Both the position numbers and the translations under genes were made by a program. A stretch of DNA of 64,000 bases from an uncultured Candidatus Sumerlaeota bacterium. Lineage in GTDB: Bacteria; Sumerlaeota; Sumerlaeia; MWCT01; JAGHBZ01. Shown piece after piece: positions 3,863-17,147 of this stretch. Each line of letters begins with the position of its first letter. Positions within the stretch are counted from its first letter, which is position 1. The notes under the pieces were generated by a model. That model was not told the DNA's origin and did no database searches. It saw only the letters and a list, made by a program, of their open reading frames with translations. The stretch is taken from NCBI GenBank assembly GCA_964608095.1, contig CAZSMK010000003.1, forward strand, positions 1,076-65,075, written 5' to 3'.

Positions 3863-3982
3863 ACCAGGGTCAGACCTTCAGTTTACAGTTTTACCTGCAA
3901 GACGATGGTGTTGATGACGGAAAGTAAAAAAATAAACAAACACTGTTATACTTAAACTGTAAACTGAAGGTCTGACCCCGGT
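3863..3982 (+). mobile_element. ~120-bp MITE/REPIN-like element, copy 1
   Basis: Inverted arms GGGTCAGACCTTCAGTTTACAGTTT ... AAACTGTAAACTGAAGGTCTGACCC around an A-rich core; recurs at 5658 and 20788; overlaps the mvhA 3' end. Confidence 0.85.
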
Positions 3983-5448
3983 AGGGTTTTTATAAGGTTT
4001 CCGTCTGCATCCCTGATGTTCGCAACCAACGGCATGTCGCCCGGTAAGGAATGTGTAGCGCAACCGAAACAGGGATCGTAGGCACGAAACGCCATCTCTA
4101 TCATGTTCAAAATAGGTTCGGTAACTTCCTTGCCTTTTTCGATAAAGGTTTCGGCTGCCTTTCGGATCGAAAGATTAAGCGCACCGTAATTGTTCGTAGT
4201 CCCGACGAGGAGATTCGCCTTTTTTACGATTCCGTTTTCATCGGTCACATAATGATGAGTGAGCGTTCCCCGTGGCGCTTCAACGATTCCCACTCCCTCA
4301 GATGGTATCTCGGTGGGAATGGTGCGAATCTTATCGCTGGTGATTTCGGGGTCCGTGGCAAGTTCGAGCATACGTTCGCTGGCGTATAAGAGCTCAACCA
4401 ATCGAGCCCAGTGAGTGGCAAGGGTATGGTGAACCATTTTTTTACCGCTGGAATCACCGGTGATAGTCTGGAAAAATTCTTCATAGGCTTCCTGGGCGCG
4501 GGGTGTTGCCATCCCATCGGCGACGTTCAGCCGCGACAAGGGTGTCGCCCGGTAAATGCCGCTTTCCTTCCCATCCTTGAATCCTTGCCAGCCTATCTTT
4601 TTAAGGAACGGGAACTTGAGAAAGCTCCATGACTCGACATGTTCTGCAATGTGGTTGGTGTATTCGTCAGACGAGTAGGTGCAAAATTCGTGTCCTTCCG
4701 GGTCAACCACGCGTATCTTTCCGTCGTAAAAGTTGACTTTGTTATGACCATCCACCAATCCCATGTAATAGGTCTCATGGTAGTATGTGTCGCTGAGGAT
4801 GAGGTCTTTATAGCGAGGAATTGCCAGTACAAGGTCTTTGAAAGTCTGGATGCTGAAGAGAGAGAACTCAATAGCCCATCGAGCGATTTGCTCGACTTCG
4901 TCGCGTTCATCCTTGTTAAGTCCTTTCGACACGCCCCCGGGAAGGACACAAATGGGGTGACACTGTCGCGCCGCGAGTAGCTCGACAACGTGGTTGCATT
5001 TTTTTCGCATTTCGATAATGCGTGAGCCGGTCTCGACGCCGACCTTTTTTATAAGACCGAGGATGTTACGCTCGGCAACGGGTGCGTCAGCGCCGACAAT
5101 AAAATCCGGTGCCGCAAGGATATAAAAATGGGTCGTATGGTCGCTTGCGAAGAAGGCGGAGTAAGGGAGTTCGCGCAACTTTTTTGCGGCGGGAGGCGGA
5201 TCGACCTTGAAGACTGCGTCGACAGCTTTACCGGAAGCAATGTGATGAGCTTCCGGGCAGACGCCGCAGATGCGAGGTGTAATATGCGGGAGTTCCTCAA
5301 CGGGTCTGCCCTCGGCGAACTTTTCAAAGCCCCTGAGCTCGGGGATCTGGAAATAGGCGTTGGCAACCTCGCCTTCGTCGTCGAGAAAAATTTCAATTTT
5401 CCCGTGACCTTCGAGTCGTGTAACCGGATCGATAGATATCTTATGCAT
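3952..5448 (-). CDS. mvhA: [NiFe]-hydrogenase large subunit, group 3c (MvhA-like)
   Basis: TRLEGHGK; L1 motif RICGVC; EAPRG; L2 motif RAYDPCFGCATH followed by a cleavable C-terminal tail; mvhD/mvhG/hdr context. Confidence 0.93.
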   Translation of the reverse strand: MHKISIDPVTRLEGHGKIEIFLDDEGEVANAYFQIPELRGFEKFAEGRPVEELPHITPRICGVCPEAHHIASGKAVDAVFKVDPPPAAKKLRELPYSAFFASDHTTHFYILAAPDFIVGADAPVAERNILGLIKKVGVETGSRIIEMRKKCNHVVELLAARQCHPICVLPGGVSKGLNKDERDEVEQIARWAIEFSLFSIQTFKDLVLAIPRYKDLILSDTYYHETYYMGLVDGHNKVNFYDGKIRVVDPEGHEFCTYSSDEYTNHIAEHVESWSFLKFPFLKKIGWQGFKDGKESGIYRATPLSRLNVADGMATPRAQEAYEEFFQTITGDSSGKKMVHHTLATHWARLVELLYASERMLELATDPEITSDKIRTIPTEIPSEGVGIVEAPRGTLTHHYVTDENGIVKKANLLVGTTNNYGALNLSIRKAAETFIEKGKEVTEPILNMIEMAFRAYDPCFGCATHSLPGDMPLVANIRDADGNLIKTLPGSDLQFTV

Positions 5449-5657
5449 AACGAGTCCTCCGGGAAATGCAGCGGCGCATGAAAAAAAGAAATATATTGTG
5501 TAATGCAGAAAAAGAATATGCCATTAGTATCTTTCCCGAAAAAGATGCCTGGCTTTTAATACTGCCAATGCCCATAGCGATTATTAATTGCTGTGCGCAA
5601 TACATATTTTTCTTGTACTCTTCTGTCAGGGCGTAGTCAAAGACAAAGCCAGAAAAA

Positions 5658-5777
5658 AAGGGGGTCAGACCTTCAGTTTACAGTTTTACCTGCAAGACGA
5701 AGATGTTTATGAAAGAAAGCAAAAAAATTAACAAACAGTGTTATACCCAAACTGTAAACTGAAGGTCTGACCCCGGT
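5658..5777 (+). mobile_element. ~120-bp MITE/REPIN-like element, copy 2
   Basis: Same 25-bp arms and related core; ends 4 bp from the stop codon of the PDZ gene. Confidence 0.85.
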
Positions 5778-5781
5778 AGGT

Positions 5782-8142
5782 TTATGGCATCTTGAGATCG
5801 ACGACGCGGCTTTTTCCCATGGTCTGTATCTGGAGCGAGACCTTTTCCTTTTCCGATTCCTGTGCGGCATTGATCTTCTGCTCGAAATCTTGCGCGCCTT
5901 TAAGTGGCTCGTTGTCAAGGCTTGTTATAATTTCATAGGGCTTTATTCCTGCAACAGAAGCAGGGGTTCCCGTTTCTACCTTGTCAACGACAACGCCTGA
6001 AACCTCCGGCGCCACTTTCATAGCAGCACGCACCTCGTACGTGAGGTCTTTGACTGTCAAGCCGATGTCGTCGTCTTTAAATTTTGCAGCGCTGTCGAAA
6101 TCGGGCGGTGCGGTTTCTACAACTACTTTTTTCGACTCGCCTTTCCCGTCGGAATAATAATTCAACGTAATCTCGGTTCCCTCGCCGAGGGTATCCAGTA
6201 GACCGGTAAGATAATTTTTTCTTGTTCGCCACGGTTTCTTTTCCGGCATTGAAAGCCCGAATGCTTCAAGCGCTTTGGGAATTTGTCCCTGTCCCATATC
6301 GAATTCCTCGAATTCATTTTGTGGAGGACGCAGTTCGATAGGATATCGTTTCTTCTTTTTCTCGATACTGAGCAGAATATCGCCGGGCTTCAATGGAATT
6401 TTCTCAGCGGGTGAACCGGCATACACCTGGCTGATAGTCAAACCGATCTCGCCGTCTTTAGTAGGTTTTTCGACTTCGAGGTTCTTTGCAAGTTCGCGGT
6501 TCATGGGTGAATACTCGATCCCGAGCCAGAGCTTTTGTTTCTCTTCTTCTTTTGTGAGAGGTTTAATACGAGGGTCGAGAGATTCATCCGGCTGAAGGAT
6601 TGCCTCTTTGACATCTACCAGGGAGACAAGGTCATCGTACCCGCCGGGTCTGAACCATTTCTCTTTCTCGAACATTTCCGAGCCATAATCGTCACGTTGA
6701 CCAAGGTATTGTTTTATCTCTTCGTCTTCTTTGCGAGTTTTGAGAAAAAGCCCAATAATTTTACCCTCCGTATTGAGGACAAAATCGCCTCTCATTATTT
6801 CGCCGTAGAGATTCCACGTATACTTATCCTCATAGGATTTAGCCCTGTCATAACAGCGGAAATGGCTGCAAATGACATACTTTTCGCCGAATTTCTTCTC
6901 GGCATGGAGTGAGAAATAGGGTGAAAAAGGTTGGACGGGCTCAAACGTAAGGAGTTCCGCGGCATTGGGAAGCGTGGTGTCATCGTTCACCCGCACAAGA
7001 TATGCGGCGAAATCCTTATAAGTCCCGGCATACGTCCCTTCCACTTCCTCTTCTTCGGAGAGATAGAGGGTAACCGACTTAATCTTGGCTGCTTGCTTTC
7101 TCCCGATGAAGTGGGGTACGAGGAGAGTGTTATGGTTTATAGCCAGCCCGTAATGTTCGATATCTTCGAACTTTTCGCCGCCATAGCCGAACATGCGATA
7201 CAGTGAACCCCAGACGCCGCCCTCGTCCTCGGAATCGGTTCCCTGGCGAAGTTCTATTTTGACGCGATAAAGAAAGGGTTCGAACCGTTTCTTCATGTCG
7301 TTGAGATATGAGAAATACTCGTCGCGAGAGATTTTCCAGGCGTTTTTGAGCGACTCACCTTTCCAGATAACATTTCGTTCGTTCCAGTCGATAAAGGACG
7401 ATGACGCCACACCTACAGGTGAGTATTCTGAATCAAGCACAGCAGAGAGCGAGAAGAGCGTGTTAAGCATGGAATGATAGTAACCGGAGACCAGTCCCCA
7501 TATATTCATGGGGACATAAATCTGCACGGTCGGCTGTTCCTCTTCAAAGGGACCGATACCGGGACCAACAAACGACACGTTAAGGAGAGTTTGTTCGAGT
7601 TTTTTGTTGGCGTTCACCGCCGTGAAAAAGAATTGTGATGGAGGGACATCCGGGAGTGTGGTAAAATCGAGCGGTTTAAGCGGTTCAGCTTCCTGGAGAT
7701 TTTTGGGCATAATTAGGAGCACAGGCGCCTTGACCATGATGCCGGCAATTTCTCCCTCGATAGACTTGTCGGAACCGGGAAGGTCAATGGTCACGTGGTC
7801 GAGATGGCGAAGGTCGAAGCAAGGATCGAAGAGCATGCAATGTTTTTGGTCGTCGATGACGAAACCCACGAGGTCGAGTGATGTTTTTTCTTCTGCAAAG
7901 TTACGGTATATTTCCTTTTCGCCGTCCAGTTCGCTGGGTTTATCATCGGGCAAAATTTTCCAGAAAAGATGCACCTTTACCATAGAATTCTGGAGAACGT
8001 CGCGCACATTTTGGATGACCACAGGAGAAGGTGCGGCTAAATCCTGTGCTGGCGCACGCGACGCTACTATGGGTAACCCAATTAAAATCGCCACTACTAT
8101 GCAGATTATGTTTCCCCTCATTTTCCTATTCCTCCTCGTCAT
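5782..8142 (-). CDS. Exported PDZ-domain protein with probable degenerate trypsin-like domains
   Basis: Signal peptide; two PDZ domains (LWLGIEY...GSPAEK...KPGDIL; IGLTVK...GTPASVAGIKPYEII); no GNSGG catalytic motif. Confidence 0.7.
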   Translation of the reverse strand: MTRRNRKMRGNIICIVVAILIGLPIVASRAPAQDLAAPSPVVIQNVRDVLQNSMVKVHLFWKILPDDKPSELDGEKEIYRNFAEEKTSLDLVGFVIDDQKHCMLFDPCFDLRHLDHVTIDLPGSDKSIEGEIAGIMVKAPVLLIMPKNLQEAEPLKPLDFTTLPDVPPSQFFFTAVNANKKLEQTLLNVSFVGPGIGPFEEEQPTVQIYVPMNIWGLVSGYYHSMLNTLFSLSAVLDSEYSPVGVASSSFIDWNERNVIWKGESLKNAWKISRDEYFSYLNDMKKRFEPFLYRVKIELRQGTDSEDEGGVWGSLYRMFGYGGEKFEDIEHYGLAINHNTLLVPHFIGRKQAAKIKSVTLYLSEEEEVEGTYAGTYKDFAAYLVRVNDDTTLPNAAELLTFEPVQPFSPYFSLHAEKKFGEKYVICSHFRCYDRAKSYEDKYTWNLYGEIMRGDFVLNTEGKIIGLFLKTRKEDEEIKQYLGQRDDYGSEMFEKEKWFRPGGYDDLVSLVDVKEAILQPDESLDPRIKPLTKEEEKQKLWLGIEYSPMNRELAKNLEVEKPTKDGEIGLTISQVYAGSPAEKIPLKPGDILLSIEKKKKRYPIELRPPQNEFEEFDMGQGQIPKALEAFGLSMPEKKPWRTRKNYLTGLLDTLGEGTEITLNYYSDGKGESKKVVVETAPPDFDSAAKFKDDDIGLTVKDLTYEVRAAMKVAPEVSGVVVDKVETGTPASVAGIKPYEIITSLDNEPLKGAQDFEQKINAAQESEKEKVSLQIQTMGKSRVVDLKMP

Positions 8143-9586
8143 AGTCTTTGCGGTAATCGAGCACTATCCATTTTTTATAACCGCTTCGCAATAGTTCTAA
8201 AAGAACCTTTTTTTCACGCTTGGTATCTTCCATAATGGTATTGTAGAGAGTTTTGATATCTTCGAGGCTGTTGATTTCCTGTCGGTCGATGCTGAGGATG
8301 ATATCGTTGGTATGCAATCTGGCATTGGCTGCATTGCCGGGATATTTCACCCCCTGAATAAACACGCCCTGTTTCTTGTAAAAAAAGTGTTCGGGATTCT
8401 TGAACTTGTTGATCTCTTTGACAGTCATATCCCATCGCTCGAGGTCGAAATCCTCTCCCTCGACCTTGCCCTTGAGAACGGGCGTAATAGAAAAGCTGGT
8501 TAAGGAATCACCGCGCTGAATATTGAAAATGGAGGGAGAGTCAACAGGCAAATCTGCAAGAAGCCAGCGAATTTGCGGGAGGTCTTCTGCGTACAGACCC
8601 ATAATGGGTGTGTTATTGACGGCGAGGAGTAAATCTCCGGACTTGACGCCTGCTTCCCGTGCAGGTGAATTTTTGTCCACGTCGGAGATCAAGACACCGC
8701 GCTCCGCATCGATAAAGGTGTTCGAATAGAAGTCGTTAAGGGGTTGAAGTTGCAAGCCGGACCAGGCTCGCATTACTTCCTCGTTCTTCTTCAACCGTTC
8801 GACGATATCCCGGACGACATTGGACGGAATGGCAAACCCGATGTTCTCACCGATTATCATCATACCAAGGGTATTGATGCCGACGATTTTGCCTTCGGTA
8901 TTAACGAGTGGGCCGCCGCTGTTGCCCGGATTTATTGCCGCGTCTGTCTGCAACCAGACGTTGTATTTGTAAATGCTTTCGAACCCGAGATAGCGGGTAG
9001 TGTTGGATATAATCCCGAGGGAGATGGAGCGTGTGAAGCCGAACGGTGCGCCGAGCGCCATGACAAACTGCCCCTCCTCGAGGTTGCCTGAATCGGCAAA
9101 TTCAGCGTAGGGAAGAGTCTGGCTTTCCGTCCCGTAATCGAGTTTCAATAACGCCAGGTCGGTCTCAGGGTCTCTGCCTATAAGAGTTGCATCCACCTGC
9201 TTCTTGTTCCACAGCACACAGTTTATGACAAGCGATTTTTCCACCACGTGGTTATTCGTGACTACATAGCCATCCGGACTGATAATCACACCGGAGCCGA
9301 AGACCCTTTGCTTTTTCTTCTCGCCGCTTTCGTATTCTTCCACAATAGGCTTTACGAAGACAAGCGCGGGAAACACTTTGCGCTTTGCGGTTTCAATAAC
9401 TTCCTCGAAGTTTATATTCCGGGGAACCGTTTGAGAGGAAGAAACAAGAACCGTTCTGCTGCATGAAAAGAGAAATAGTGAGACAATGCAAAGACCCATT
9501 ATCGCAGAAAAAGAACGTATGCGGTGTTTGCCTTTACGGTTTTTGAATCTATTGTTGTGCAATGAAATCATAACTTTATCCTTCAT
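8126..9586 (-). CDS. HtrA/DegP-family serine endoprotease with PDZ domains, possible lipoprotein
   Basis: GSGVII, TNNHVV (His), TDLALL (Asp), DAAINPGNSGGPL (Ser); C-terminal PDZ domains; 'LFSC' lipobox-like. Confidence 0.9.
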   Translation of the reverse strand: MKDKVMISLHNNRFKNRKGKHRIRSFSAIMGLCIVSLFLFSCSRTVLVSSSQTVPRNINFEEVIETAKRKVFPALVFVKPIVEEYESGEKKKQRVFGSGVIISPDGYVVTNNHVVEKSLVINCVLWNKKQVDATLIGRDPETDLALLKLDYGTESQTLPYAEFADSGNLEEGQFVMALGAPFGFTRSISLGIISNTTRYLGFESIYKYNVWLQTDAAINPGNSGGPLVNTEGKIVGINTLGMMIIGENIGFAIPSNVVRDIVERLKKNEEVMRAWSGLQLQPLNDFYSNTFIDAERGVLISDVDKNSPAREAGVKSGDLLLAVNNTPIMGLYAEDLPQIRWLLADLPVDSPSIFNIQRGDSLTSFSITPVLKGKVEGEDFDLERWDMTVKEINKFKNPEHFFYKKQGVFIQGVKYPGNAANARLHTNDIILSIDRQEINSLEDIKTLYNTIMEDTKREKKVLLELLRSGYKKWIVLDYRKDYDEEE

Positions 9587-10577
9587 CTTGATTATTGATA
9601 TTGGAATTATCCCCGTTTTTTTTTGCTCGCTTCATAAGGGAGTGTGCGAGCGAAAACCGATAAAAGTATCCGACAGTATCGGGTAGTTCGTCGATAATTT
9701 TTTTAATTTTTTCAGGTTTTTCTTCATCTATAACTGAGGCGAGGGCGGAAAGTATCTTAGCGCCCTGGTCAATGACGCCGTCGGGTGCGCCATAGCATCC
9801 GCGGCAAGGCATATTAGCGCGAAGACAGCGCGCATCGCAGCCGCTCCGCGTGGCGGGACCTGCACAGAAAATGCCCTGTTCGAGAAAACAGATTTCGGGA
9901 TCATGCTCCACTTCATGGATTCGGTGTAATTTTGTTATCTTTTTCTCCCCCTTTTTTCGCGGACATTCATCGCAGACCGTTTTATCGCCGCAACCGATAT
10001 AGGAGCCTTTTGGAGGAAGGGGTTTTCTCTGGATAATGGATTCGAGAACCGCCCAGGTCTGTTCGGGAACAGGTGGGCAGCCGGGGATAAAATAATCGAC
10101 CTCGACGACGTCCGCGAGAGTATAGACGGTGTTATAAAATTGAGGCAAAACAAGCTCGCCTTCCTCGACTTGCGTGTTTGTAAGGGGTATAACCTTGGCG
10201 GGGTTATGGGTCGTTACGGTCTCTTCGTACACGCATTTGAATATACCTTCACGGTCGCTCAGATTCGCTAGGGCGGGGATACATCCTTCTGTCGCGCAAG
10301 AACCATAGGCGATGAGGATTTTCGATTTTTCGCGCAATAGTTTCGCCATGTGTTCCGATTCGGAATTTCTTACCGCGCCGTTAAAGAGACAAAAATCCAG
10401 ATGCTTGTCAGGCATTGCCTCGACATCCTTGTATTTGGCGTCCATAGCAACAGGCCAGAAAAGGATATCCGCATGTTCGGCGAGCGTGAGAATTTTCTCG
10501 TAGATCTCGAGTACCGCTATTTCACAGCCACCGCAGCTCGCTGCCCAGTAGAAGCCGAGTTTCAGCTTGTCCGCCAT
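9576..10577 (-). CDS. mvhG: [NiFe]-hydrogenase small subunit (MvhG-like)
   Basis: SCGGCE, GSCA, PGCPP, VCDECP, CFLEQG...CAGPAT...C...PCRGCYG. Confidence 0.92.
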   Translation of the reverse strand: MADKLKLGFYWAASCGGCEIAVLEIYEKILTLAEHADILFWPVAMDAKYKDVEAMPDKHLDFCLFNGAVRNSESEHMAKLLREKSKILIAYGSCATEGCIPALANLSDREGIFKCVYEETVTTHNPAKVIPLTNTQVEEGELVLPQFYNTVYTLADVVEVDYFIPGCPPVPEQTWAVLESIIQRKPLPPKGSYIGCGDKTVCDECPRKKGEKKITKLHRIHEVEHDPEICFLEQGIFCAGPATRSGCDARCLRANMPCRGCYGAPDGVIDQGAKILSALASVIDEEKPEKIKKIIDELPDTVGYFYRFSLAHSLMKRAKKNGDNSNINNQDEG

Positions 10578-10662
10578 GCTGTCTTCCTCCTTGAAGAGGT
10601 AATAAGTCCTTTATTGTAATAATGATGAAACAAGATTAAAGTTAACGAAAATCAAAGAGCTG

Positions 10663-11088
10663 TTATTTTGATGCCTGCGATTTCATCGGGTGGACAAAGG
10701 GACCGAGTGTTCGTATCTGTTCCGTGAATTCTTTTACCACCTCGGTGTAGCGTTCACCCTCTGATGCGGAGACCCATTCAAGTTTGACGCGCTCGGGTTC
10801 TATTCCGAGTTCTTTGAGCATCTTTTGAAGGAGTATGAAGCGCCGCATTGCATTATAATTGCCGGATTGATAATGACAATCGCCGGGATGACAGCCGCAA
10901 ATCAAGACCCCGTCGGCGCCGGACTCGAGGGCTTTAAGGACAAATGTCGGGTCAATTCGACCGGTGCACATGACCCTGATCACCCTGACGTTGGGCGGAT
11001 ACTTCTTGCGTGCAGTGCCTGCAAGATCAGCGCCCGTATATGAACACCAGTTACATAAAAATCCCACGATTCGTGGTTCGAACGTCAT
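10663..11088 (-). CDS. mvhD: Hydrogenase/Hdr [2Fe-2S] linker subunit MvhD (FlpD family)
   Basis: FLCNWCSYTGADLAG, RVMCTGR, GCHPGDCHY, WVSASEG. Confidence 0.95.
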   Translation of the reverse strand: MTFEPRIVGFLCNWCSYTGADLAGTARKKYPPNVRVIRVMCTGRIDPTFVLKALESGADGVLICGCHPGDCHYQSGNYNAMRRFILLQKMLKELGIEPERVKLEWVSASEGERYTEVVKEFTEQIRTLGPFVHPMKSQASK

Positions 11089-11135
11089 AACGAGAGCCTC
11101 CGGAATTTATATAGAGAACAACCCATTATAAGATA

Positions 11136-12917
11136 TCATACATCTCCTAAAATACCTTTTATTTCAGCGAGAATTTGTTGATCGGTAAAATGTTTGCCCT
11201 TGATACAAGCCTGTGGGCACGCCGCCACACATGTGCCGCACCCTTTACATAGTGCGGCGTTCACACGGGAGACTTTCTTTTCCCGGTCGAACTCGATAGC
11301 GGAATAAGGACAAAGGGCATTGCAGATTCGGCATCCTGAGCAGCGTTCTTCATCGATTTCGGCAACGGCGGCGTCGAGTTCCACGAATCCGCGGCTGATA
11401 AGAGAAAGCACCTGAGCAGCGGCAGCAGCGCCCTGGGCAACGGCATCGGGGATGTCTTTGGGTCCCTGGCAACATCCCGCTATAAACACGCCATCCGTGT
11501 TGGTCGAGACAGGAGCGAGTTTCGGATGGCGTTCAAGGAAAAATCCGTCGGGACTCAAGCCGCATGACACCAAGCGGCTGACTTCTTTTGTGTCGTGACG
11601 GCTTTTAAGCGCTGCACATAACACCACCATATCCACGGGTATGCGTCGAATAGTTCCTGCAAGTGTATCTTCGCATCGTACTATAAGTTTACCCTTCTCA
11701 GCAGGCGTCATGGCGTAATCGGAAATTTCACCTACTTTACCACGGACGAAGCGCACACCCTCGTCAAGAAGCCGATGGTAAAACTCCTCGTACCCTTTGC
11801 CGAAGCAGCGAAGGTCTATATACATGTCATAGACTTCTGCATCGGTCTTATCCTTGAGCAGGTGAGCGTATTTCAGGGCATACATGCAACAGACGCGTGA
11901 ACAATATTCAAAATAATGTTTATCCCTGCTACCCACACAGTGAACAATCGCCACGGACTCAGGTTTCTTTCCATTCGCAAGCAGAATCTTTCCCCCTGTA
12001 GACCCTTCTGCGCAATTCATTCGTTCGAATTCAAGTGCGGTCAAAACGTTGGGATAACGTCCGTACCCGTATTGCTCGATAACGGAGGGGTCAAATTGAT
12101 CGTAACCCGTGGCAATGACGATATTGCCGACGTTGAATGTGACCTCTTCGTCTTTCTGGTCGAAATCAATGGCATCAGCGGGACAAATATCCCGGCAATG
12201 ACCACACCCACCGGTGCGAAGCCGAATGCAATGGCTGGCATCGATAAAGGGGACATTCGGCACTGCCTGGAGAGTGGGCACGCGCACTGCAGTTGCCGGA
12301 CCCAGCTGGATTTCGTCGTGAATAACTTCTCGTTGAGCGATGTCCTCGATCGTAATGGCGCCGGTAGGGCATACGTGAGCACATGCGCCGCATAGTATAC
12401 ACGCCTCAGACTCTTCATTGAAGGGTGTAGTGACTTCACGGGAGCCATCGGAAGTGGCGAATCCGATAGCCGATGCGCCGACTACTTCTTCGCACACTCG
12501 CACGCACAAACCGCAAAGAATGCATTTTTCATCAGGCTCATCCGGGGGAAAAGGGGAATCGATGACACCGTATTCAGCGGCAAGGCGGCGTACCTGCTCG
12601 GAGCCCGGCGCACGGGCAAGAAGCAATTCAAGTATGGTCTTTCGAATTTCATGTACTCGTTCGTTGGAGGTATGTATGATCATATCCGTCATAATGGGGT
12701 AGTTACATGCGGTAACAATACGCCGACGTTTGCCCCGCACCACCTCGACAGAACAAACGCGGCAGGAGGCGTAGGGTTCTATGAGGTTACTGTGGCAGAG
12801 CGTGGGAATCCTGATGCCGAGTTTATCGGCTGCTTCAACCACCGTGGTTCCGCGCTCAACTTGAAGCTCATAACCATCAATAACGACGTTGACCTTGTTC
12901 ACGTCATTGGCGCCCAT
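11136..12917 (-). CDS. Fusion: NuoG-like N-terminal [2Fe-2S]+2x[4Fe-4S] module joined to the C-terminal half of HdrA
   Basis: IPTLC...CRVC...TAC; CILCGLCVRVC; CILCGACAHVCP; then HdrA motifs QAVP, IVIATG, LEFERM, HCVGSRD, YCSRVCCMYALK, GCCQGPKDIP and a C-terminal 2x[4Fe-4S] domain. Confidence 0.88.
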   Translation of the reverse strand: MGANDVNKVNVVIDGYELQVERGTTVVEAADKLGIRIPTLCHSNLIEPYASCRVCSVEVVRGKRRRIVTACNYPIMTDMIIHTSNERVHEIRKTILELLLARAPGSEQVRRLAAEYGVIDSPFPPDEPDEKCILCGLCVRVCEEVVGASAIGFATSDGSREVTTPFNEESEACILCGACAHVCPTGAITIEDIAQREVIHDEIQLGPATAVRVPTLQAVPNVPFIDASHCIRLRTGGCGHCRDICPADAIDFDQKDEEVTFNVGNIVIATGYDQFDPSVIEQYGYGRYPNVLTALEFERMNCAEGSTGGKILLANGKKPESVAIVHCVGSRDKHYFEYCSRVCCMYALKYAHLLKDKTDAEVYDMYIDLRCFGKGYEEFYHRLLDEGVRFVRGKVGEISDYAMTPAEKGKLIVRCEDTLAGTIRRIPVDMVVLCAALKSRHDTKEVSRLVSCGLSPDGFFLERHPKLAPVSTNTDGVFIAGCCQGPKDIPDAVAQGAAAAAQVLSLISRGFVELDAAVAEIDEERCSGCRICNALCPYSAIEFDREKKVSRVNAALCKGCGTCVAACPQACIKGKHFTDQQILAEIKGILGDV

Positions 12918-12997
12918 GACCGCGCTCCTCGCTCTCTTCTTACCTTATCTTTTTGAAACATTGTTGAACCGACTGTTGTATCAAAATACATCTTTCA

Positions 12998-14683
12998 TTA
13001 TCCTGCCCGCATCCGGCAAACGTGAGCGGGGCATTCTTTATCGTTGAGGTGCGATTCGTACTCCTCTTTAAAATAGCGAAAGGTACTCAAAAAAGGAATC
13101 GGTGCGGCGACGCCGAAACCGCAGAGCGACGCATCTCGCATCGTAGACGATAACCGCAGGAGTGTATCTATATCCTTTTGTTCGCCTTTTCCATCACAGA
13201 TACGATGAAGAATGCGTGCCATCTGAAACAAGCCCTCCCTGCATGGGGTACATTTGCCGCATGACTCGTTTTTAAGGGCATCGATGCAGTAACGGGCATA
13301 ATCGACCATGCACACATCCTCGTCAATGACAAGGAGGCTCCCAGAACCAAGCGCCACACCTTTTTCAATAAACCTGTCAAAATCAACGGGTAAATAGAGT
13401 AAATTCTCCGGTATGACGTAGCCGTAAATTCCGCCAAGCTGGACGGCTTTGAAGGCTTTTCCGTCGGTAATACCACCGCCGATGTCGTAAATAATGTCGC
13501 GAAGGGTAACGCCCATAGGAACTTCTATAATGCCGGAATTGAGAACAGCGCCGGCAAGTGAAAAGACCTTTGTCCCGCTGCTCAAATCTGCCGAATAGTC
13601 AAAACCATTCTTCGATGCTGTAGACTTGAACCATTTCGACCCGTGCAGGATTATGCCGGGCACGTTCGCCCATGTCTCGGTACAGTTAATGTTAGTTGGT
13701 TTATCGAATAGACCTTTTTCGATGACGTTTGAATATTCGCTACGCGGCTCAGGTGCTCCGCCCTCGAGAAAGGAAACGAGGGCGGAAGGGTGATTCAACA
13801 TGAGAGCGCCGTTGCTCCGGCGTAGCTCAATATCAAAATTAAACGGGTGCCCCAGAATACCGGTTCCCAGGTATCCTTTTTCACGTGCTTGTTCAATCGC
13901 TTTTTTAATCCGTCCCGGGAGGGCTTTATCATAATCGGGCAGACAGATGAATCCCTTTTGCGCGCCGATAGCAAAGGCGCCTATAATCATTCCCTCGATA
14001 ACACCGTGCGGATTCGATTCTATAAGGGCGAGCCCTATGGATGCAACCGAGCGTCCATCTTCTGTGGTGCAGACAAGGTACCGCTCACCGTTTCCCGCAT
14101 TTCGGCACGCTTCCCATTTAATGGCGGTAGGGAATCCGCCGCCGCCTCGACCGCGCAAGCCGGAGTCTTTAATTTCACGTAACACCGTTTCAGGTGTCAT
14201 CGAGGTTACCGCCCTTGCCAGCGCCTTGTACCCATCATGTGCTATATAATCATCGATAGAATCGGGATTAATATCGTAACAATTCTTCGTCACCACGAGT
14301 TTTTGTTCTTTTAAACTTTCATGGCTCTCGATTTGGAATTTGCCCTTTTCCTGAGTTTCTCCCTGTTTTGTATCCGGCTTGCGGGAAAATGTATCAAGAA
14401 TCTTATCGCTTCCTTTTACATGATACACCGAAGGTGAATATACGCCGGTACGATAGTTGTCCCCGGGTTGAAGTTTAAATGCCTTATAAACGGAAGCAAT
14501 GTGGTAGAGCTTGTTGAGGGGGAGATTCAGTGAAAGGGCAACTTTTTCAAGCGCAGCTCGCGGGAGATATGCAAACTCTTCCTGTATGTCGTACAGGATT
14601 TCTATGAGATAGCGCTCTTTCATTTCCCATTTGTTCAGGATAGAATCGAGAGTTTCCATGTTGAACCCGCTGGCAACACTCAT
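12998..14683 (-). CDS. Degenerate NuoE-NuoF (HydC/HydB-like) fusion flavoprotein
   Basis: NuoE-like N-terminus (LIEILYDIQEEFAYLP); SGLRGRGGGGFPT; ETWANVP; SLBB domain; ESCGKCTPCREG...SLCG [4Fe-4S]; several canonical motifs altered. Confidence 0.85.
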   Translation of the reverse strand: MSVASGFNMETLDSILNKWEMKERYLIEILYDIQEEFAYLPRAALEKVALSLNLPLNKLYHIASVYKAFKLQPGDNYRTGVYSPSVYHVKGSDKILDTFSRKPDTKQGETQEKGKFQIESHESLKEQKLVVTKNCYDINPDSIDDYIAHDGYKALARAVTSMTPETVLREIKDSGLRGRGGGGFPTAIKWEACRNAGNGERYLVCTTEDGRSVASIGLALIESNPHGVIEGMIIGAFAIGAQKGFICLPDYDKALPGRIKKAIEQAREKGYLGTGILGHPFNFDIELRRSNGALMLNHPSALVSFLEGGAPEPRSEYSNVIEKGLFDKPTNINCTETWANVPGIILHGSKWFKSTASKNGFDYSADLSSGTKVFSLAGAVLNSGIIEVPMGVTLRDIIYDIGGGITDGKAFKAVQLGGIYGYVIPENLLYLPVDFDRFIEKGVALGSGSLLVIDEDVCMVDYARYCIDALKNESCGKCTPCREGLFQMARILHRICDGKGEQKDIDTLLRLSSTMRDASLCGFGVAAPIPFLSTFRYFKEEYESHLNDKECPAHVCRMRAG

Positions 14684-14744
14684 GCAAAAAACCTCCTGAT
14701 ACTCTATTCACGCCGATCACAGGCTGGTAAGATTTCGTAGAATA

Positions 14745-15611
14745 TTATTCCGATTTTTTAATCACTTTTCGTCCAAGCCTGACCACTCGTCTTCGGGGTG
14801 TGATGGTAACCGGACATTCGCCCCAGCACATCCCACACCCGGTGCATTTATCTATATCAACGTATCGTGGCTTTTTACGAACCGTTATTTCAAAATTACC
14901 AATAGAGCCGGAGACTTCCGAGACCTCGGAATACGTCATAAGTGCGATATTCTTATTTTTACCGACCGCTACCATTTTGGGTGTCAGGATACAAGCGGCA
15001 CAGTCGAGGGTGGGAAAGGTTTTATCGAACTCCGCCATGTGCCCGCCGATCGAGGGGTCGCGCTCGACAAGATATACTTTTTTACCGGCATCGGCGATAT
15101 CGAGCGCCGCCTGGATTCCCGCAATGCCGCCGCCGATAACGAGCGTAGCGGGATTTATATCAACCTTCATGGTCTCGAGCGGTTCGAGATAGATTGCCTT
15201 GTAAACAGCGGCGCTCAGGATTGACTTGGTTTTCTCGGTTGCTTTATGCGCATCCTCGGTCACCCATGAACAATGTTCGCGAATGTTCGCCTGCTGGAAA
15301 AGGTAGCGGTTCAACCCGGCTTCTTCGACAGCGGCGCGAAAAGTAGGTTCATGCATGAGGGGGGAACACGCCGCCACGACTATCCGGTTGAGTCCTTGTT
15401 CCCTGATGTCCTGTTTTATGAGTTCCTGTCCCGGCTCGGAACACATGAAGTGATAGTCACGCGCCAACGCCACGTGAGGGAGTGTCCGGGCGAACTTGAC
15501 GACGTCATCTATATCGACTACTCCCGCTATGTTGGTGCCGCAATGACATACATATACCCCTATTCGGATGTCATCTGCGGTCTCCTGTTGATGGTTTACA
15601 TCGTCTGCCAT
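14745..15611 (-). CDS. hdrA: Heterodisulfide reductase subunit A, N-terminal half
   Basis: IGVYVCHCGTNI, MCS, AACSP, NIREHCSWV, GGGIAG (FAD), DKTFPTLDC; ends after a single CTGCGMCWGECP motif with a TAA stop. Confidence 0.9.
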   Translation of the reverse strand: MADDVNHQQETADDIRIGVYVCHCGTNIAGVVDIDDVVKFARTLPHVALARDYHFMCSEPGQELIKQDIREQGLNRIVVAACSPLMHEPTFRAAVEEAGLNRYLFQQANIREHCSWVTEDAHKATEKTKSILSAAVYKAIYLEPLETMKVDINPATLVIGGGIAGIQAALDIADAGKKVYLVERDPSIGGHMAEFDKTFPTLDCAACILTPKMVAVGKNKNIALMTYSEVSEVSGSIGNFEITVRKKPRYVDIDKCTGCGMCWGECPVTITPRRRVVRLGRKVIKKSE

Positions 15612-15654
15612 TCAACTTCTCCTGAGACAATAAAGGACGCATATCCGGGATTCG

Positions 15655-16572
15655 TCATCGAGCCTTGACTGATTGGCGCAAGCCATATCGTTCGAGAACG
15701 CGCCTGGCTGATACAGCGAGGTGCTGGAATCCGAGTTTTTTCAGCGGTATGCCCAACGTCAATCCAATGATCTGAGTAAAATATAAAACGGGTAAATTGT
15801 ATTTCACATGAAACCGAGCTTCAACCTTGTGCTGATAGACATCCAGATTGAACTGACAGAGTGGACACGGTGTCATAATACACTCGGCGCCGGCTTCCTT
15901 CGCACAGTCGAGAATATCCTTAATCAGGACTAAGGCGACATCCGGGGAAGAACCGATAAGAGAGGCGCCGCAACATTTCACTTTCATTGGGAACTCGATA
16001 GCCTCGCCTCCCAGAGCGTTTACCATCTTTTCCATCTCGTTCGGCAACTCCAGATGCTCGTATAGTCCGAAAGGTCGCACCATCTGGCATCCATAATAGG
16101 TTGCGATTTTCAGTCCACCGAGATCGCGCTTTTGCGCTTTATTTAGTCCTTCAGTACCCACATCGCTCATAATGGTCTCAAAAAGATGGCGCACCCTGAG
16201 TGTTCCTTTATAGTCAAGTCCCGCCGCTGCAAGTATCGTCTTTAACTTTCGTCTGAGCTCAGGGTATTCCTGAAAGTATTGATTGGTTTTGTGGAGTACA
16301 AGATAACAAGCGCTGCATGGCGTGACCACATCTCGCCCGAACTGTTCAGCCATGGCAAGATTACGGCTCGAGATAGCGAAGGAGACGAGCTCCTTGACGG
16401 ACATGTAGGTCGTTGCACCGCAGCAATTCCAATCGTCGAGCTCTATCAACGTAATGCCCAGTTTTTCAGTGATGGCTTCGATTGATTTTTTATACCCGAT
16501 TCCGGTTGCCTCGAGTGAACATCCGGGATAAAAGGTGTATTCGAGAGGCTTTTTCTCTTTGTCGTTGTTCAT
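15655..16572 (-). CDS. hdrB: Heterodisulfide reductase subunit B
   Basis: Two CCG domains: YPGC...WNCCG...PCSAC and YYGC...CCGA...PCPLC. Confidence 0.93.
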   Translation of the reverse strand: MNNDKEKKPLEYTFYPGCSLEATGIGYKKSIEAITEKLGITLIELDDWNCCGATTYMSVKELVSFAISSRNLAMAEQFGRDVVTPCSACYLVLHKTNQYFQEYPELRRKLKTILAAAGLDYKGTLRVRHLFETIMSDVGTEGLNKAQKRDLGGLKIATYYGCQMVRPFGLYEHLELPNEMEKMVNALGGEAIEFPMKVKCCGASLIGSSPDVALVLIKDILDCAKEAGAECIMTPCPLCQFNLDVYQHKVEARFHVKYNLPVLYFTQIIGLTLGIPLKKLGFQHLAVSARRVLERYGLRQSVKAR

Positions 16573-16577
16573 GCCTT

Positions 16578-17147
16578 CTACTCCATCTGTTGCGCCTTTT
16601 TGATGATGGTTTTCAGTTGTTTCATATTCTTTATCCGTTTGGGCAATCCGGAAATACGGCGTCGTCGTAATAGGTTCAAAGCTACCGTAGAATTATACAG
16701 CATTGCCAGGGGATTGGTTTTGAGCATAAACAAAGTCATGAGAATCATCTCATGGTTTCTGCCGAACATGTTTACTAATCCTGCGAAAATTTTCGACATC
16801 TCCTGCGATTTATGTCCTTTTATATTGTTACCTTCTTCTATGGCGAGCTGTTTGAGGCCATACATAATATCCGTGATTTTTATCTCCTGAGGACATCTGA
16901 CATAACAGGTGTAACAGGATGAACACAGCCAAATGGTTTTGCTTTCGAGCACGCTGGTTTTCATCCCTGCGCGAACCATGGCGAATAACTTGCGCGGAGA
17001 GAAATCCATAAACGGGCTGGTCGGACACGAGCCGGAACAAGACCCGCATTGAATACAGTCCTTTATCTTTTCGCCGCCGGGTAGAGAGAAAACCTTGTGG
17101 ATAAAATTGAGGTCAAGGGCTTCTTCGAGGAGAATAGGGGATTCCAT
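16578..17147 (-). CDS. hdrC: Heterodisulfide reductase subunit C
   Basis: CIQCGSCSGSCP and IWLCSSCYTCYVRCP. Confidence 0.92.
   Translation of the reverse strand: MESPILLEEALDLNFIHKVFSLPGGEKIKDCIQCGSCSGSCPTSPFMDFSPRKLFAMVRAGMKTSVLESKTIWLCSSCYTCYVRCPQEIKITDIMYGLKQLAIEEGNNIKGHKSQEMSKIFAGLVNMFGRNHEMILMTLFMLKTNPLAMLYNSTVALNLLRRRRISGLPKRIKNMKQLKTIIKKAQQME

Follow-up and report, generated by a model that had tools for sequence, protein, structure and literature searches.

A NuoE-NuoF fusion with erased FMN/NAD(H) motifs in a split-hdrA, Mvh-Hdr-type operon of a Candidatus Sumerlaeota bacterium

Members of the Bfu family share, as their defining feature, an invariant BfuBC core with flavin mononucleotide (FMN) and six clusters (PMC9304861). 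In HydB of the A. mobile NiFe-HydABCSL complex (PDB 7t2r) residues 113-536 make up three middle domains: a Rossmann fold for FMN and reduced nicotinamide adenine dinucleotide (NADH), an SLBB domain and a four-helix bundle with the clusters B1 and B2 (PMC8880783). Class II benzoyl-CoA reductase is the closest and the sole characterised enzyme joining HydBC-type and HdrA-type modules; in this complex (BamBCDEFGHI of G. metallireducens) the HydBC-type BamGH and the NuoG-like BamI are wired to the HdrA-type BamE and the MvhD-like BamF (bioRxiv 10.64898/2026.04.10.717634). Here we describe a gene, nuoEF*, found in a window of 64,000 nucleotides (the whole stretch of DNA that was analysed: GenBank assembly GCA_964608095.1, contig CAZSMK010000003.1, positions 1,076 to 65,075 of the forward strand) from an uncultured Candidatus Sumerlaeota bacterium. 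The gene combines parts of NuoE and NuoF, its FMN/NAD(H) motifs are largely replaced, and it lies in an operon for an Mvh-Hdr-type complex. The reading that we favour, with a little better than even confidence, is that the product of nuoEF* is a vestige without catalytic activity, which serves an H2-driven Mvh-Hdr complex as a scaffold or Fe-S subunit.

Motifs, clusters and domains of the fused protein

nuoEF*, 12998..14683, minus strand: 561 aa, in which a NuoE (HydC/BfuC) remnant is fused to the three middle domains of NuoF (HydB/BfuB).
Shine-Dalgarno sequence AGGAGG, 14692..14697, minus strand: 8 nt 5' of the nuoEF* ATG.
Residues 1-67, 14483..14683, minus strand: N-terminal four-helix bundle of NuoE, confidently modelled, within the predicted interface with the NuoG-like domain.
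Residues 68-123, 14315..14482, minus strand: remnant of the NuoE thioredoxin-like [2Fe-2S] domain, with Y82, Y87 and S123, the fourth Cys deleted; predicted local distance difference test (pLDDT) < 50.
Residues 124-345, 13649..14314, minus strand: Rossmann-type FMN/NADH domain; destroyed motifs at 205-219, 245-255, 290-305 and 333-337, Gly-rich loop 175-187 kept.
Residues 346-440, 13364..13648, minus strand: SLBB domain; GGPSGG reads GGIYGY (417-422).
Residues 441-561 and stop, 12998..13363, minus strand: four-helix bundle with the B1 ligands Cys475/478/481/521 and the B2/Zn ligands C458, C496, H545, C551 and C556.

The profile matches identify nuoEF* as a NuoE-NuoF (HydC-HydB, or BfuC-BfuB) fusion and a member of the NuoF/HydB homology family. 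Pfam 2Fe-2S_thioredx (PF01257) matches residues 13-122 over positions 2-111 of the 145 of the profile (69.0 bits, cut-off 24.8), and NuoE of G001, one of two other genomes of the same family (G001 and G002), is 41% identical over 124 aa. Complex1_51K (PF01512) matches residues 171-342 with 77.8 bits (cut-off 31.2), while the intact G001 orthologue reaches 160.3; SLBB is also matched, and NADH_4Fe-4S (PF10589) matches residues 461-545 with 104.2 bits. The score for NCBIfam nuoF_fam (TIGR01959), 354.8, is under the cut-off of 558.65. The best PDB match is the HydB-type chain 7t2r_B (E 3e-133), with residues 126-557 aligned to 114-537 of the chain. The open reading frame listing gives no stop in the 561 codons, as a preliminary description of the gene had stated.

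The motifs were checked against the HydB-type chains in PDB and 13 close homologues, and the losses quoted for NuoF in the preliminary description were all borne out by 7t2r_B and these homologues. The canonical CNADEGDPGAF reads CTTEDGRSVAS from C205, GAGAFVCGEETAL reads SNGALMLNHPSAL (S290-NGALMLNHPSAL), NNVET reads NCTET from N333, and GGPSGG reads GGIYGY. In these four FMN/NAD(H) motifs 24 of the 37 invariant columns are replaced (10/13 in CNADEGDPGAFMDR, 8/12 in GAGAFVCGEETAL, 4/7 in GGPSGG). GRGGGGFPT is present, and the Gly-rich loop keeps 10 of its 11 conserved columns. The NADH-binding residues named for Aquifex NuoF are E95, E97, D103 and E184, with G394 also mapped (PMC6560083); by motif register the first four correspond to D209, R211, G217 and H298 of nuoEF*. 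As far as the sequence can tell, the FMN/NADH pocket of nuoEF* is lost.

The losses extend to the Fe-S sites. In the NuoE part VCxGTACHV reads V81-YSPSVYHV, with the Cys residues replaced by Y82 and Y87, the third Cys by S123 and the fourth deleted at the junction, so the preliminary description was right about both Cys pairs. It had not listed two further losses, those of the HydB N-terminal [2Fe-2S] domain with hndB and of the C-terminal 2x[4Fe-4S] domain. Residues 1-110 of G001 NuoF, which include the B5 thioredoxin-like [2Fe-2S] domain, are without counterpart in nuoEF*, and a separate hndB gene is absent from the window operon; nuoEF* is about 190 residues short of NuoE-NuoF fusions, which have in addition the C-terminal end of NuoE, an HndB-like part and the [2Fe-2S] domain at the N-terminus of HydB. 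Nor does nuoEF* have the C-terminal 2x[4Fe-4S] ferredoxin domain (B3, B4): it ends 5 residues past C556, and the 80-nt spacer 3' of it holds no Cys motif in any frame.

What is kept, in agreement with the preliminary description, are the Cys residues of the [4Fe-4S] cluster and the H..CPAxVC motif. The B1 (N3) ligands C475, C478, C481 and C521 are invariant in 121/121 homologues and present in nuoEF*, and the H..CPAxVC motif is part of the B2/Zn site (C458, C496, H545, C551, C556), so that 9/9 Cys/His ligands of the two sites are kept. The B2 ligands of A. mobile HydB are C438, C476, H525, C531 and C536 (PMC9304861), the correspondence having been counted by hand on the 7t2r_B alignment; the site equivalent to B2 is read as a [2Fe-2S] cluster in 7t2r, whereas the preprint on BamH assigns Zn to it (bioRxiv 10.64898/2026.04.10.717634). 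Judged by these ligands, four of the six Fe-S sites of the Bfu core (C1, B5, B3, B4) are lost in nuoEF*, and B1 and B2/Zn are kept. The protein would be unable to oxidise NADH or to reduce ferredoxin by the known route, because FMN/NAD(H), C1, B5, B3 and B4 are missing.

It is instructive to compare nuoEF* with the two groups of characterised homologues. Like the Bfu/HydBC enzymes (A. mobile NiFe-HydABCSL, HydABC of T. maritima and A. woodii; PMC9304861), it has B1 and the five B2 ligands and adjoins a NuoG-like (BfuA) domain and a [NiFe] hydrogenase, and its match to 7t2r_B covers exactly the three middle domains; unlike them, it has no FMN/NAD(H) site and no C1, B5, B3 or B4. It resembles the non-bifurcating NuoEF/Nqo1-2, HoxEF and FdsGB in having B1 (N3), which in NuoEF-type enzymes passes electrons to the NuoG-like subunit, and in being without B3-B5 (PMC9304861). 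In these enzymes, however, FMN, the NADH site and the [2Fe-2S] cluster of NuoE (N1a) are all retained, and nuoEF* has none of them; it does keep the His/Cys B2 site, absent from the non-bifurcating homologues as PMC9304861 treats them. Since the defining flavin site is gone, nuoEF* probably works like no characterised NuoF or HydB.

The operon and its relatives

nuoEF* belongs to a minus-strand gene row (3952-17147) of the order hdrC-hdrB-hdrA(N)-nuoEF*-nuoG'::hdrA(C)-mvhD-mvhG-(degP-pdz)-mvhA, in which it is accompanied by the following genes.

hdrC, 16578..17147, minus strand: 189 aa.
hdrB, 15655..16572, minus strand: 305 aa, two CCG domains.
hdrA N-terminal half, 14745..15611, minus strand: 288 aa, matching 5odc_A residues 3-262.
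nuoG'::hdrA(C), 11136..12917, minus strand: 593 aa, NuoG/BfuA-like N-terminal [2Fe-2S] + 2x[4Fe-4S] domain joined to the C-terminal half of hdrA, matching 5odc_A 245-652.
mvhD, 10663..11088, minus strand: 141 aa, FlpD family.
mvhG/vhuG-like [NiFe]-hydrogenase small subunit, 9576..10577, minus strand: 333 aa.
mvhA/vhuA-like [NiFe]-hydrogenase large subunit, 3952..5448, minus strand: 498 aa, both NiFe Cys motifs, RICGVC and DPCFGC.

At the operon level all parts of MvhADG-HdrABC are present: HdrA (flavin adenine dinucleotide, Fe-S; split in two genes), HdrB (CCG), HdrC, MvhD, MvhG and MvhA. hdrA(N) ends just past the first Cys motif of a region that we take to be the ferredoxin domain inserted in HdrA, and the NuoE/NuoF/NuoG-like genes sit in the cut. 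In comparison with MvhADG-HdrABC of methanogens (5odc), the HdrA of which is matched by both halves and of which HdrB, HdrC, MvhD, MvhG and MvhA are all represented, the window system is bacterial, has HdrA in two genes around a Bfu-type module, and has two protease/PDZ genes between mvhG and mvhA; a reaction of the methanogen type, in which H2 would reduce a disulfide and ferredoxin, may nevertheless be retained. Relative to class II benzoyl-CoA reductase, with which the intact relatives of the operon share the two-module logic, the window operon outputs to HdrBC, has MvhAG as an extra input, has HdrA split and fused to the NuoG-like domain, and has a HydBC-type module that appears dead.

The two genes between mvhG and mvhA (window 5782-9586, minus strand) encode a DegP/HtrA-type serine protease of 486 aa, the start of which overlaps the mvhG stop, and a 786-aa PDZ protein. 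The same insertion is found in G001 (L017 1028-4839), while in the other phyla examined mvhG is directly followed by mvhA. The intergenic stretch between mvhA and the PDZ gene (5662-5777) looks like a repeat or a strain-variable stretch: a short contig in both sequencing runs (see below) differs from the window at 10 places within about 100 nt, and the depth there rises to about 60. The mvhG-like gene of G001 (L017, about 4854-5934) consists of two open frames (248 and 119 aa in a stop-to-stop listing), unlike the single 333-aa gene of the window, which could be due to a frameshift, an assembly error or a recoded stop.

In both same-family genomes nuoE, hndB and nuoF are intact and separate at the position occupied by nuoEF* in the window, and their loci have the order hdrC-hdrB-hdrA(N)-[six regulatory genes]-nuoE(156)-hndB(128)-nuoF(604)-fusion(592)-mvhD-mvhG-degP-pdz-mvhA (DegP/PDZ seen in G001). 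The regulatory genes encode a DRTGG protein, two HATPase proteins, a HydS-like [FeFe] sensory hydrogenase, a PHP protein and a small protein; this block would have been either lost in the window lineage or gained in the G001/G002 branch. HdrA, HdrB, HdrC and MvhD of the window are 64-82% identical to their G001 counterparts. P0123, the protein nearest to the window fusion (73% identical, on a 4281-nt contig), was found in none of 73 genomes of the class, the best match being the window's own genome.

The arrangement is widespread. A set of 28 genome-contig loci was chosen because they encode a full NuoG'::HdrA(C) fusion. nuoF is upstream of the fusion in 27 of these 28 loci, mvhG and mvhA follow downstream on the same strand in at least 15, and the regulatory block lies between hdrA(N) and nuoE in nine; in some loci hdrA(N) is fused to nuoE. 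The phyla recorded for these loci include Ignavibacteriota, Calditrichota, Zixibacteria, Armatimonadota, Acidobacteriota, Verrucomicrobiota, Planctomycetota and Chloroflexota. Among 80 genome-contig loci the FMN/NADH motifs are essentially intact in 34/34 BfuB genes that adjoin an HdrA-type gene. The recurrent operon can be written as hdrC-hdrB-hdrA(N)-[optional DRTGG/HATPase/HydS-like/PHP/HATPase block]-nuoE-[hndB]-nuoF-nuoG'::hdrA(C)-mvhD-mvhG-mvhA (loci L017, L018, L027-L103), and to judge from its genes a HydBC-type module interrupts HdrA inside the ferredoxin insert. In the searchable literature we found no description of a split-hdrA/Bfu/Mvh operon, nor of an FMN-less NuoF/HydB. A further observation concerns several HdrA-type matches in class-level relatives (G010:C301:7706-9466, G024:C8, G013:C128 and G024:C112), which have one in-frame TGA in a long open frame, a pattern like that of selenocysteine-containing HdrA or MvhD-type proteins.

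Since many phyla and both same-family genomes share this architecture with intact NuoE and NuoF, the degeneration is a private event, specific to the window lineage. An in-frame deletion of roughly 860 nt fused NuoE residue 124 with NuoF residue 111, another took the C-terminal ferredoxin domain, and many point substitutions came afterwards.

In the window's own genome, which is 96% complete, nuoEF* is the only NuoF-type gene, i.e. the only one with a match to NADH_4Fe-4S (PF10589). Three other Complex1_51K genes are present, and the one that was checked (L001) is RnfC-like. NADH-ferredoxin exchange in this bacterium may run through Rnf-type complexes.

Divergence, open frame and predicted docking

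The distribution of the losses was examined in 175 columns that are conserved at 95% or more in 121 canonical homologues. nuoEF* departs from the consensus at 45 of them, G001 and G002 at one each; the median of the canonical homologues is 1 and their maximum 17. Six motif segments account for 31 of the lost columns, out of 54 invariant ones, and the other 121 columns for 14; a join-count test that does not depend on the segments found 21 adjacent pairs of lost columns against 11.3 +/- 2.5 in 20,000 shuffles (P = 1e-4). The statement of the preliminary description that the loss is concentrated at the nucleotide site is thus supported, but it has to be complemented, since the whole protein evolves faster: in a tree of 26 BfuB cores the terminal branch of nuoEF* measures 1.92 changes per column, about eight times the median of 0.23. 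The terminal branch of the neighbouring NuoG'::HdrA(C) fusion is 0.21, with a median of 0.18.

The acceleration is uneven along the protein. The NuoE helix bundle (1-67) is 0.43/0.48 identical to G001/G002, which is near the normal rate (0.55 between G001 and G002), and the thioredoxin remnant (68-123) shows the strongest decay in nuoEF* (0.39/0.33 vs 0.74). The residues of the NuoF part that lie in the predicted interface have identities of 0.72/0.66 (0.83 between G001 and G002), the rest of the core 0.55/0.54 (0.78). For the NuoG-like domain of the fusion the identity to G001 is 0.64, compared to 0.65 between G001 and G002, and all of the Cys residues are invariant, which indicates that the [2Fe-2S] partner domain is not relaxed. 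Nonsynonymous divergence (dN) on the window branch is 0.30 for nuoEF* and 0.14-0.17 for neighbouring genes (hdrC, fusion). With synonymous divergence (dS) saturated and a dN of only 0.30 on that branch, the mean omega of nuoEF* is probably well below 1.

It must be considered that the NADH module became useless and that nuoEF* is an early pseudogene without a role, its frame being open by luck or for the translation of the downstream nuoG'::hdrA(C), mvhD and mvhG. We regard this as doubtful, but as the most serious of the alternatives. It is in line with the intact genes in the same-family genomes, with the singleton status of nuoEF* in all databases searched, with the length of its branch, with three separate deletion events (two, should the lineage never have had the regulatory block), with the acceleration of all domains at a near-uniform excess divergence (0.25-0.30) across conservation classes, and with a thioredoxin remnant that is predicted to be unstructured. 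In a neutral simulation with the gene's own codons, however, in which the observed excess amino-acid divergence of 0.23-0.31 was assigned to a late neutral phase and indels were ignored, 6-8 stops were predicted and the probability of no stop ranged from 0.005 down to 0/3000 replicates, while none is observed. A strong Shine-Dalgarno sequence, losses that are clustered and not spread (P = 1e-4), the retention of 9/9 Fe-S/Zn ligands and the fact that the contact regions are the least changed also speak against early decay, as does the unrelaxed state of the adjacent NuoG-like [2Fe-2S] domain, which has no role but to face B1 of nuoEF*. The open frame, the intact ribosome-binding site, the losses clustered in the pocket and the normal rates at the predicted contacts and in the neighbours are the reasons why nuoEF* is, in our judgement, not a plain pseudogene, and the phrase "not random decay" of the preliminary description appears reasonable, the open frame being unlikely under neutral decay and the losses being clustered. 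The same description had singled out intact relatives combined with a dN/dS near 1 as the mark of an incipient pseudogene: nuoE, hndB and nuoF are intact in both same-family genomes, and dS is saturated. Compensated frameshifts were considered as the source of the scrambled motifs and were ruled out, because tblastn of G001 NuoF against the nuoEF* region gave one in-frame high-scoring segment pair, and no motif was present in other frames.

That the contig is chimeric or error-ridden is a possibility to which we assign almost no weight. The genome is a draft of 144 contigs, and the depth in two runs is only about 8-9. But of 5 sequencing runs that were listed two hold the stretch, both of which may be the source sample, and their Logan contigs match 11065-15088 with 0 differences and are identical to the window over nuoEF*, leaving no single-nucleotide polymorphisms to count; synteny with G001 extends on both sides of nuoEF*, and sequencing errors would give frameshifts or stops, not 45 in-frame replacements. 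None of the listed runs is an RNA run.

In the AF2 model of nuoEF* the helix bundle (9-67) is confident and residues 68-129 are unstructured. Complex prediction of nuoEF* with residues 1-200 of the fusion scored 0.87, as opposed to 0.41 for the best of three controls; the mark is one reached by 116/157 solved complexes and 2/215 mismatched pairs. The runs share at least 96% of the contacts, and the pLDDT of the partner is 81 or higher. These predictions support a canonical docking of nuoEF* on the NuoG-like domain. It must be noted that the score shows likeness and not the binding of this copy, since similar HydA-HydB complexes have been solved and the pass may merely echo them. A comparable contact is described for BamG, the four-helix bundle of which engages the NuoG-like BamI (bioRxiv 10.64898/2026.04.10.717634).

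Several observations weigh against the reading of nuoEF* as a retained, non-catalytic subunit. nuoEF* is a singleton: no protein (lengths 30-982 aa) among 5.8 billion clusters is more than 58% identical to it, and therefore conservation of the degenerate state cannot be shown. Operon polarity or translational coupling, and not the protein, could be what keeps the frame open. Identities between the window and G001 are lowered in the Rossmann (0.52), SLBB (0.62) and four-helix domains (0.62) alike, compared to 0.78-0.79 between G001 and G002, and the excess divergence is 0.25, 0.30 and 0.29 in the three more conserved column classes and 0.46 in the most variable one; such near-uniformity would also come from a whole-protein release of constraint. 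The gradient over conservation classes (26%, 39% and 49% changed) is likewise expected from uniform extra divergence and was dropped as a sign of ongoing selection. dS is saturated in all pairs of the window, G001 and G002 (the NG86 method fails, maximum likelihood gives values > 4), which makes dN/dS unusable. The AF2 model is moderate (mean pLDDT 73.6, 100 residues < 50), the Aquifex residues (E95, E97, D103, E184, G394) were placed by motif register and not by a computed alignment, and segment 245-255 was delimited after the data had been seen, its contact with FMN being presumed. Finally, milder variants occur elsewhere, namely in the Anaerolineae loci L083 and L057 (GDEGDPNCF, GA(H/R)SFVGGE, NNVKT), and the motif of L031 is partly X and not scorable.

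Possible role of the remaining protein

How could a protein of this composition have come about, and what could it do? According to the reading of a dead scaffold or Fe-S subunit, the ancestral gene was part of an NADH/ferredoxin module (BfuC-HndB-BfuB, i.e. NuoE/NuoF or HydC/HydB) which many anaerobes have placed in a split hdrA. In the window lineage alone, in-frame deletions would have collapsed the module to 561 aa, and substitutions would then have erased the FMN/NAD(H) pocket. We infer that nuoEF* is still made and is held under relaxed purifying selection as a non-catalytic subunit, in which the NuoE helix bundle and the four-helix bundle bearing B1 would still dock on the NuoG-like [2Fe-2S] domain that is joined to the C-terminal half of HdrA. 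The main task of B1 and the B2/Zn site would be to hold the fold, a part also ascribed to off-pathway clusters in complex I. Because the rest of the operon is intact, the whole complex may now be an H2-driven bifurcating enzyme of the MvhADG-HdrABC type without an NADH branch, and the gene content suggests that H2, via MvhAG, is its remaining electron donor. The non-NAD(H) function proposed in the preliminary description was a scaffold, an Fe-S relay or a different carrier: the first two are reasonable in view of the retained B1 and B2/Zn ligands, and nothing points to the third.

It is conceivable, but in our opinion improbable, that nuoEF* has acquired a new function, the remodelled pocket binding another ligand or the exposed B1/B2 pair exchanging electrons with a new partner, as a new entry or exit port of Hdr. 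Such a change would fit with the retention of the Gly-rich phosphate loop (10/11 conserved columns) in a pocket that gains R211, H298, Y420 and Y422; with B1 and five B2 ligands that are kept and are now exposed by the loss of the C-terminal ferredoxin domain; with the full constraint still acting on the [2Fe-2S] domain that faces B1; and with nuoEF* being the sole NuoF-type gene of a 96%-complete genome (one PF10589 match; L001 RnfC-like). The change in motif 205-218, at 10 of 13 invariant positions compared to 26% protein-wide, could be directional. On the other hand, the derived residues occur in no second lineage in the databases searched, the operon has gained no neighbour in comparison with G001 and has only lost genes, the acceleration is found also in domains away from the pocket, and the data name no ligand or partner.

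Equally unlikely, as we see it, is that the dead module is an evolved off-switch and not debris. The ancestral two-module machine would have been a HydBC-type FMN module wired into the ferredoxin insert of a bifurcating HdrA with a [NiFe] hydrogenase; its NAD(H)/ferredoxin branch would have been silenced, while the protein chain with B1 and B2 and the [2Fe-2S] domain opposite would have stayed as an insulated stub, an electron buffer or a docking site. If this were true, nuoEF* would be a natural FMN-less variant of the Bfu core, one that separates the parts of the module needed for assembly from those needed for catalysis.

The general importance of nuoEF* as a dead scaffold or Fe-S subunit is limited, as it would represent a single-lineage event in one metagenome-assembled genome. 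Nevertheless, an in-frame copy that nature has stripped of FMN, the NAD(H) site and four of the six clusters would offer a ready dissection of the BfuBC module, in which the requirements of docking on the NuoG-like subunit (the NuoE helix bundle, the B1/B2 bundle) stand apart from those of the chemistry. It also draws attention to its intact relatives, a widespread operon in which a HydBC-type module would sit inside a split HdrA beside MvhDGA.

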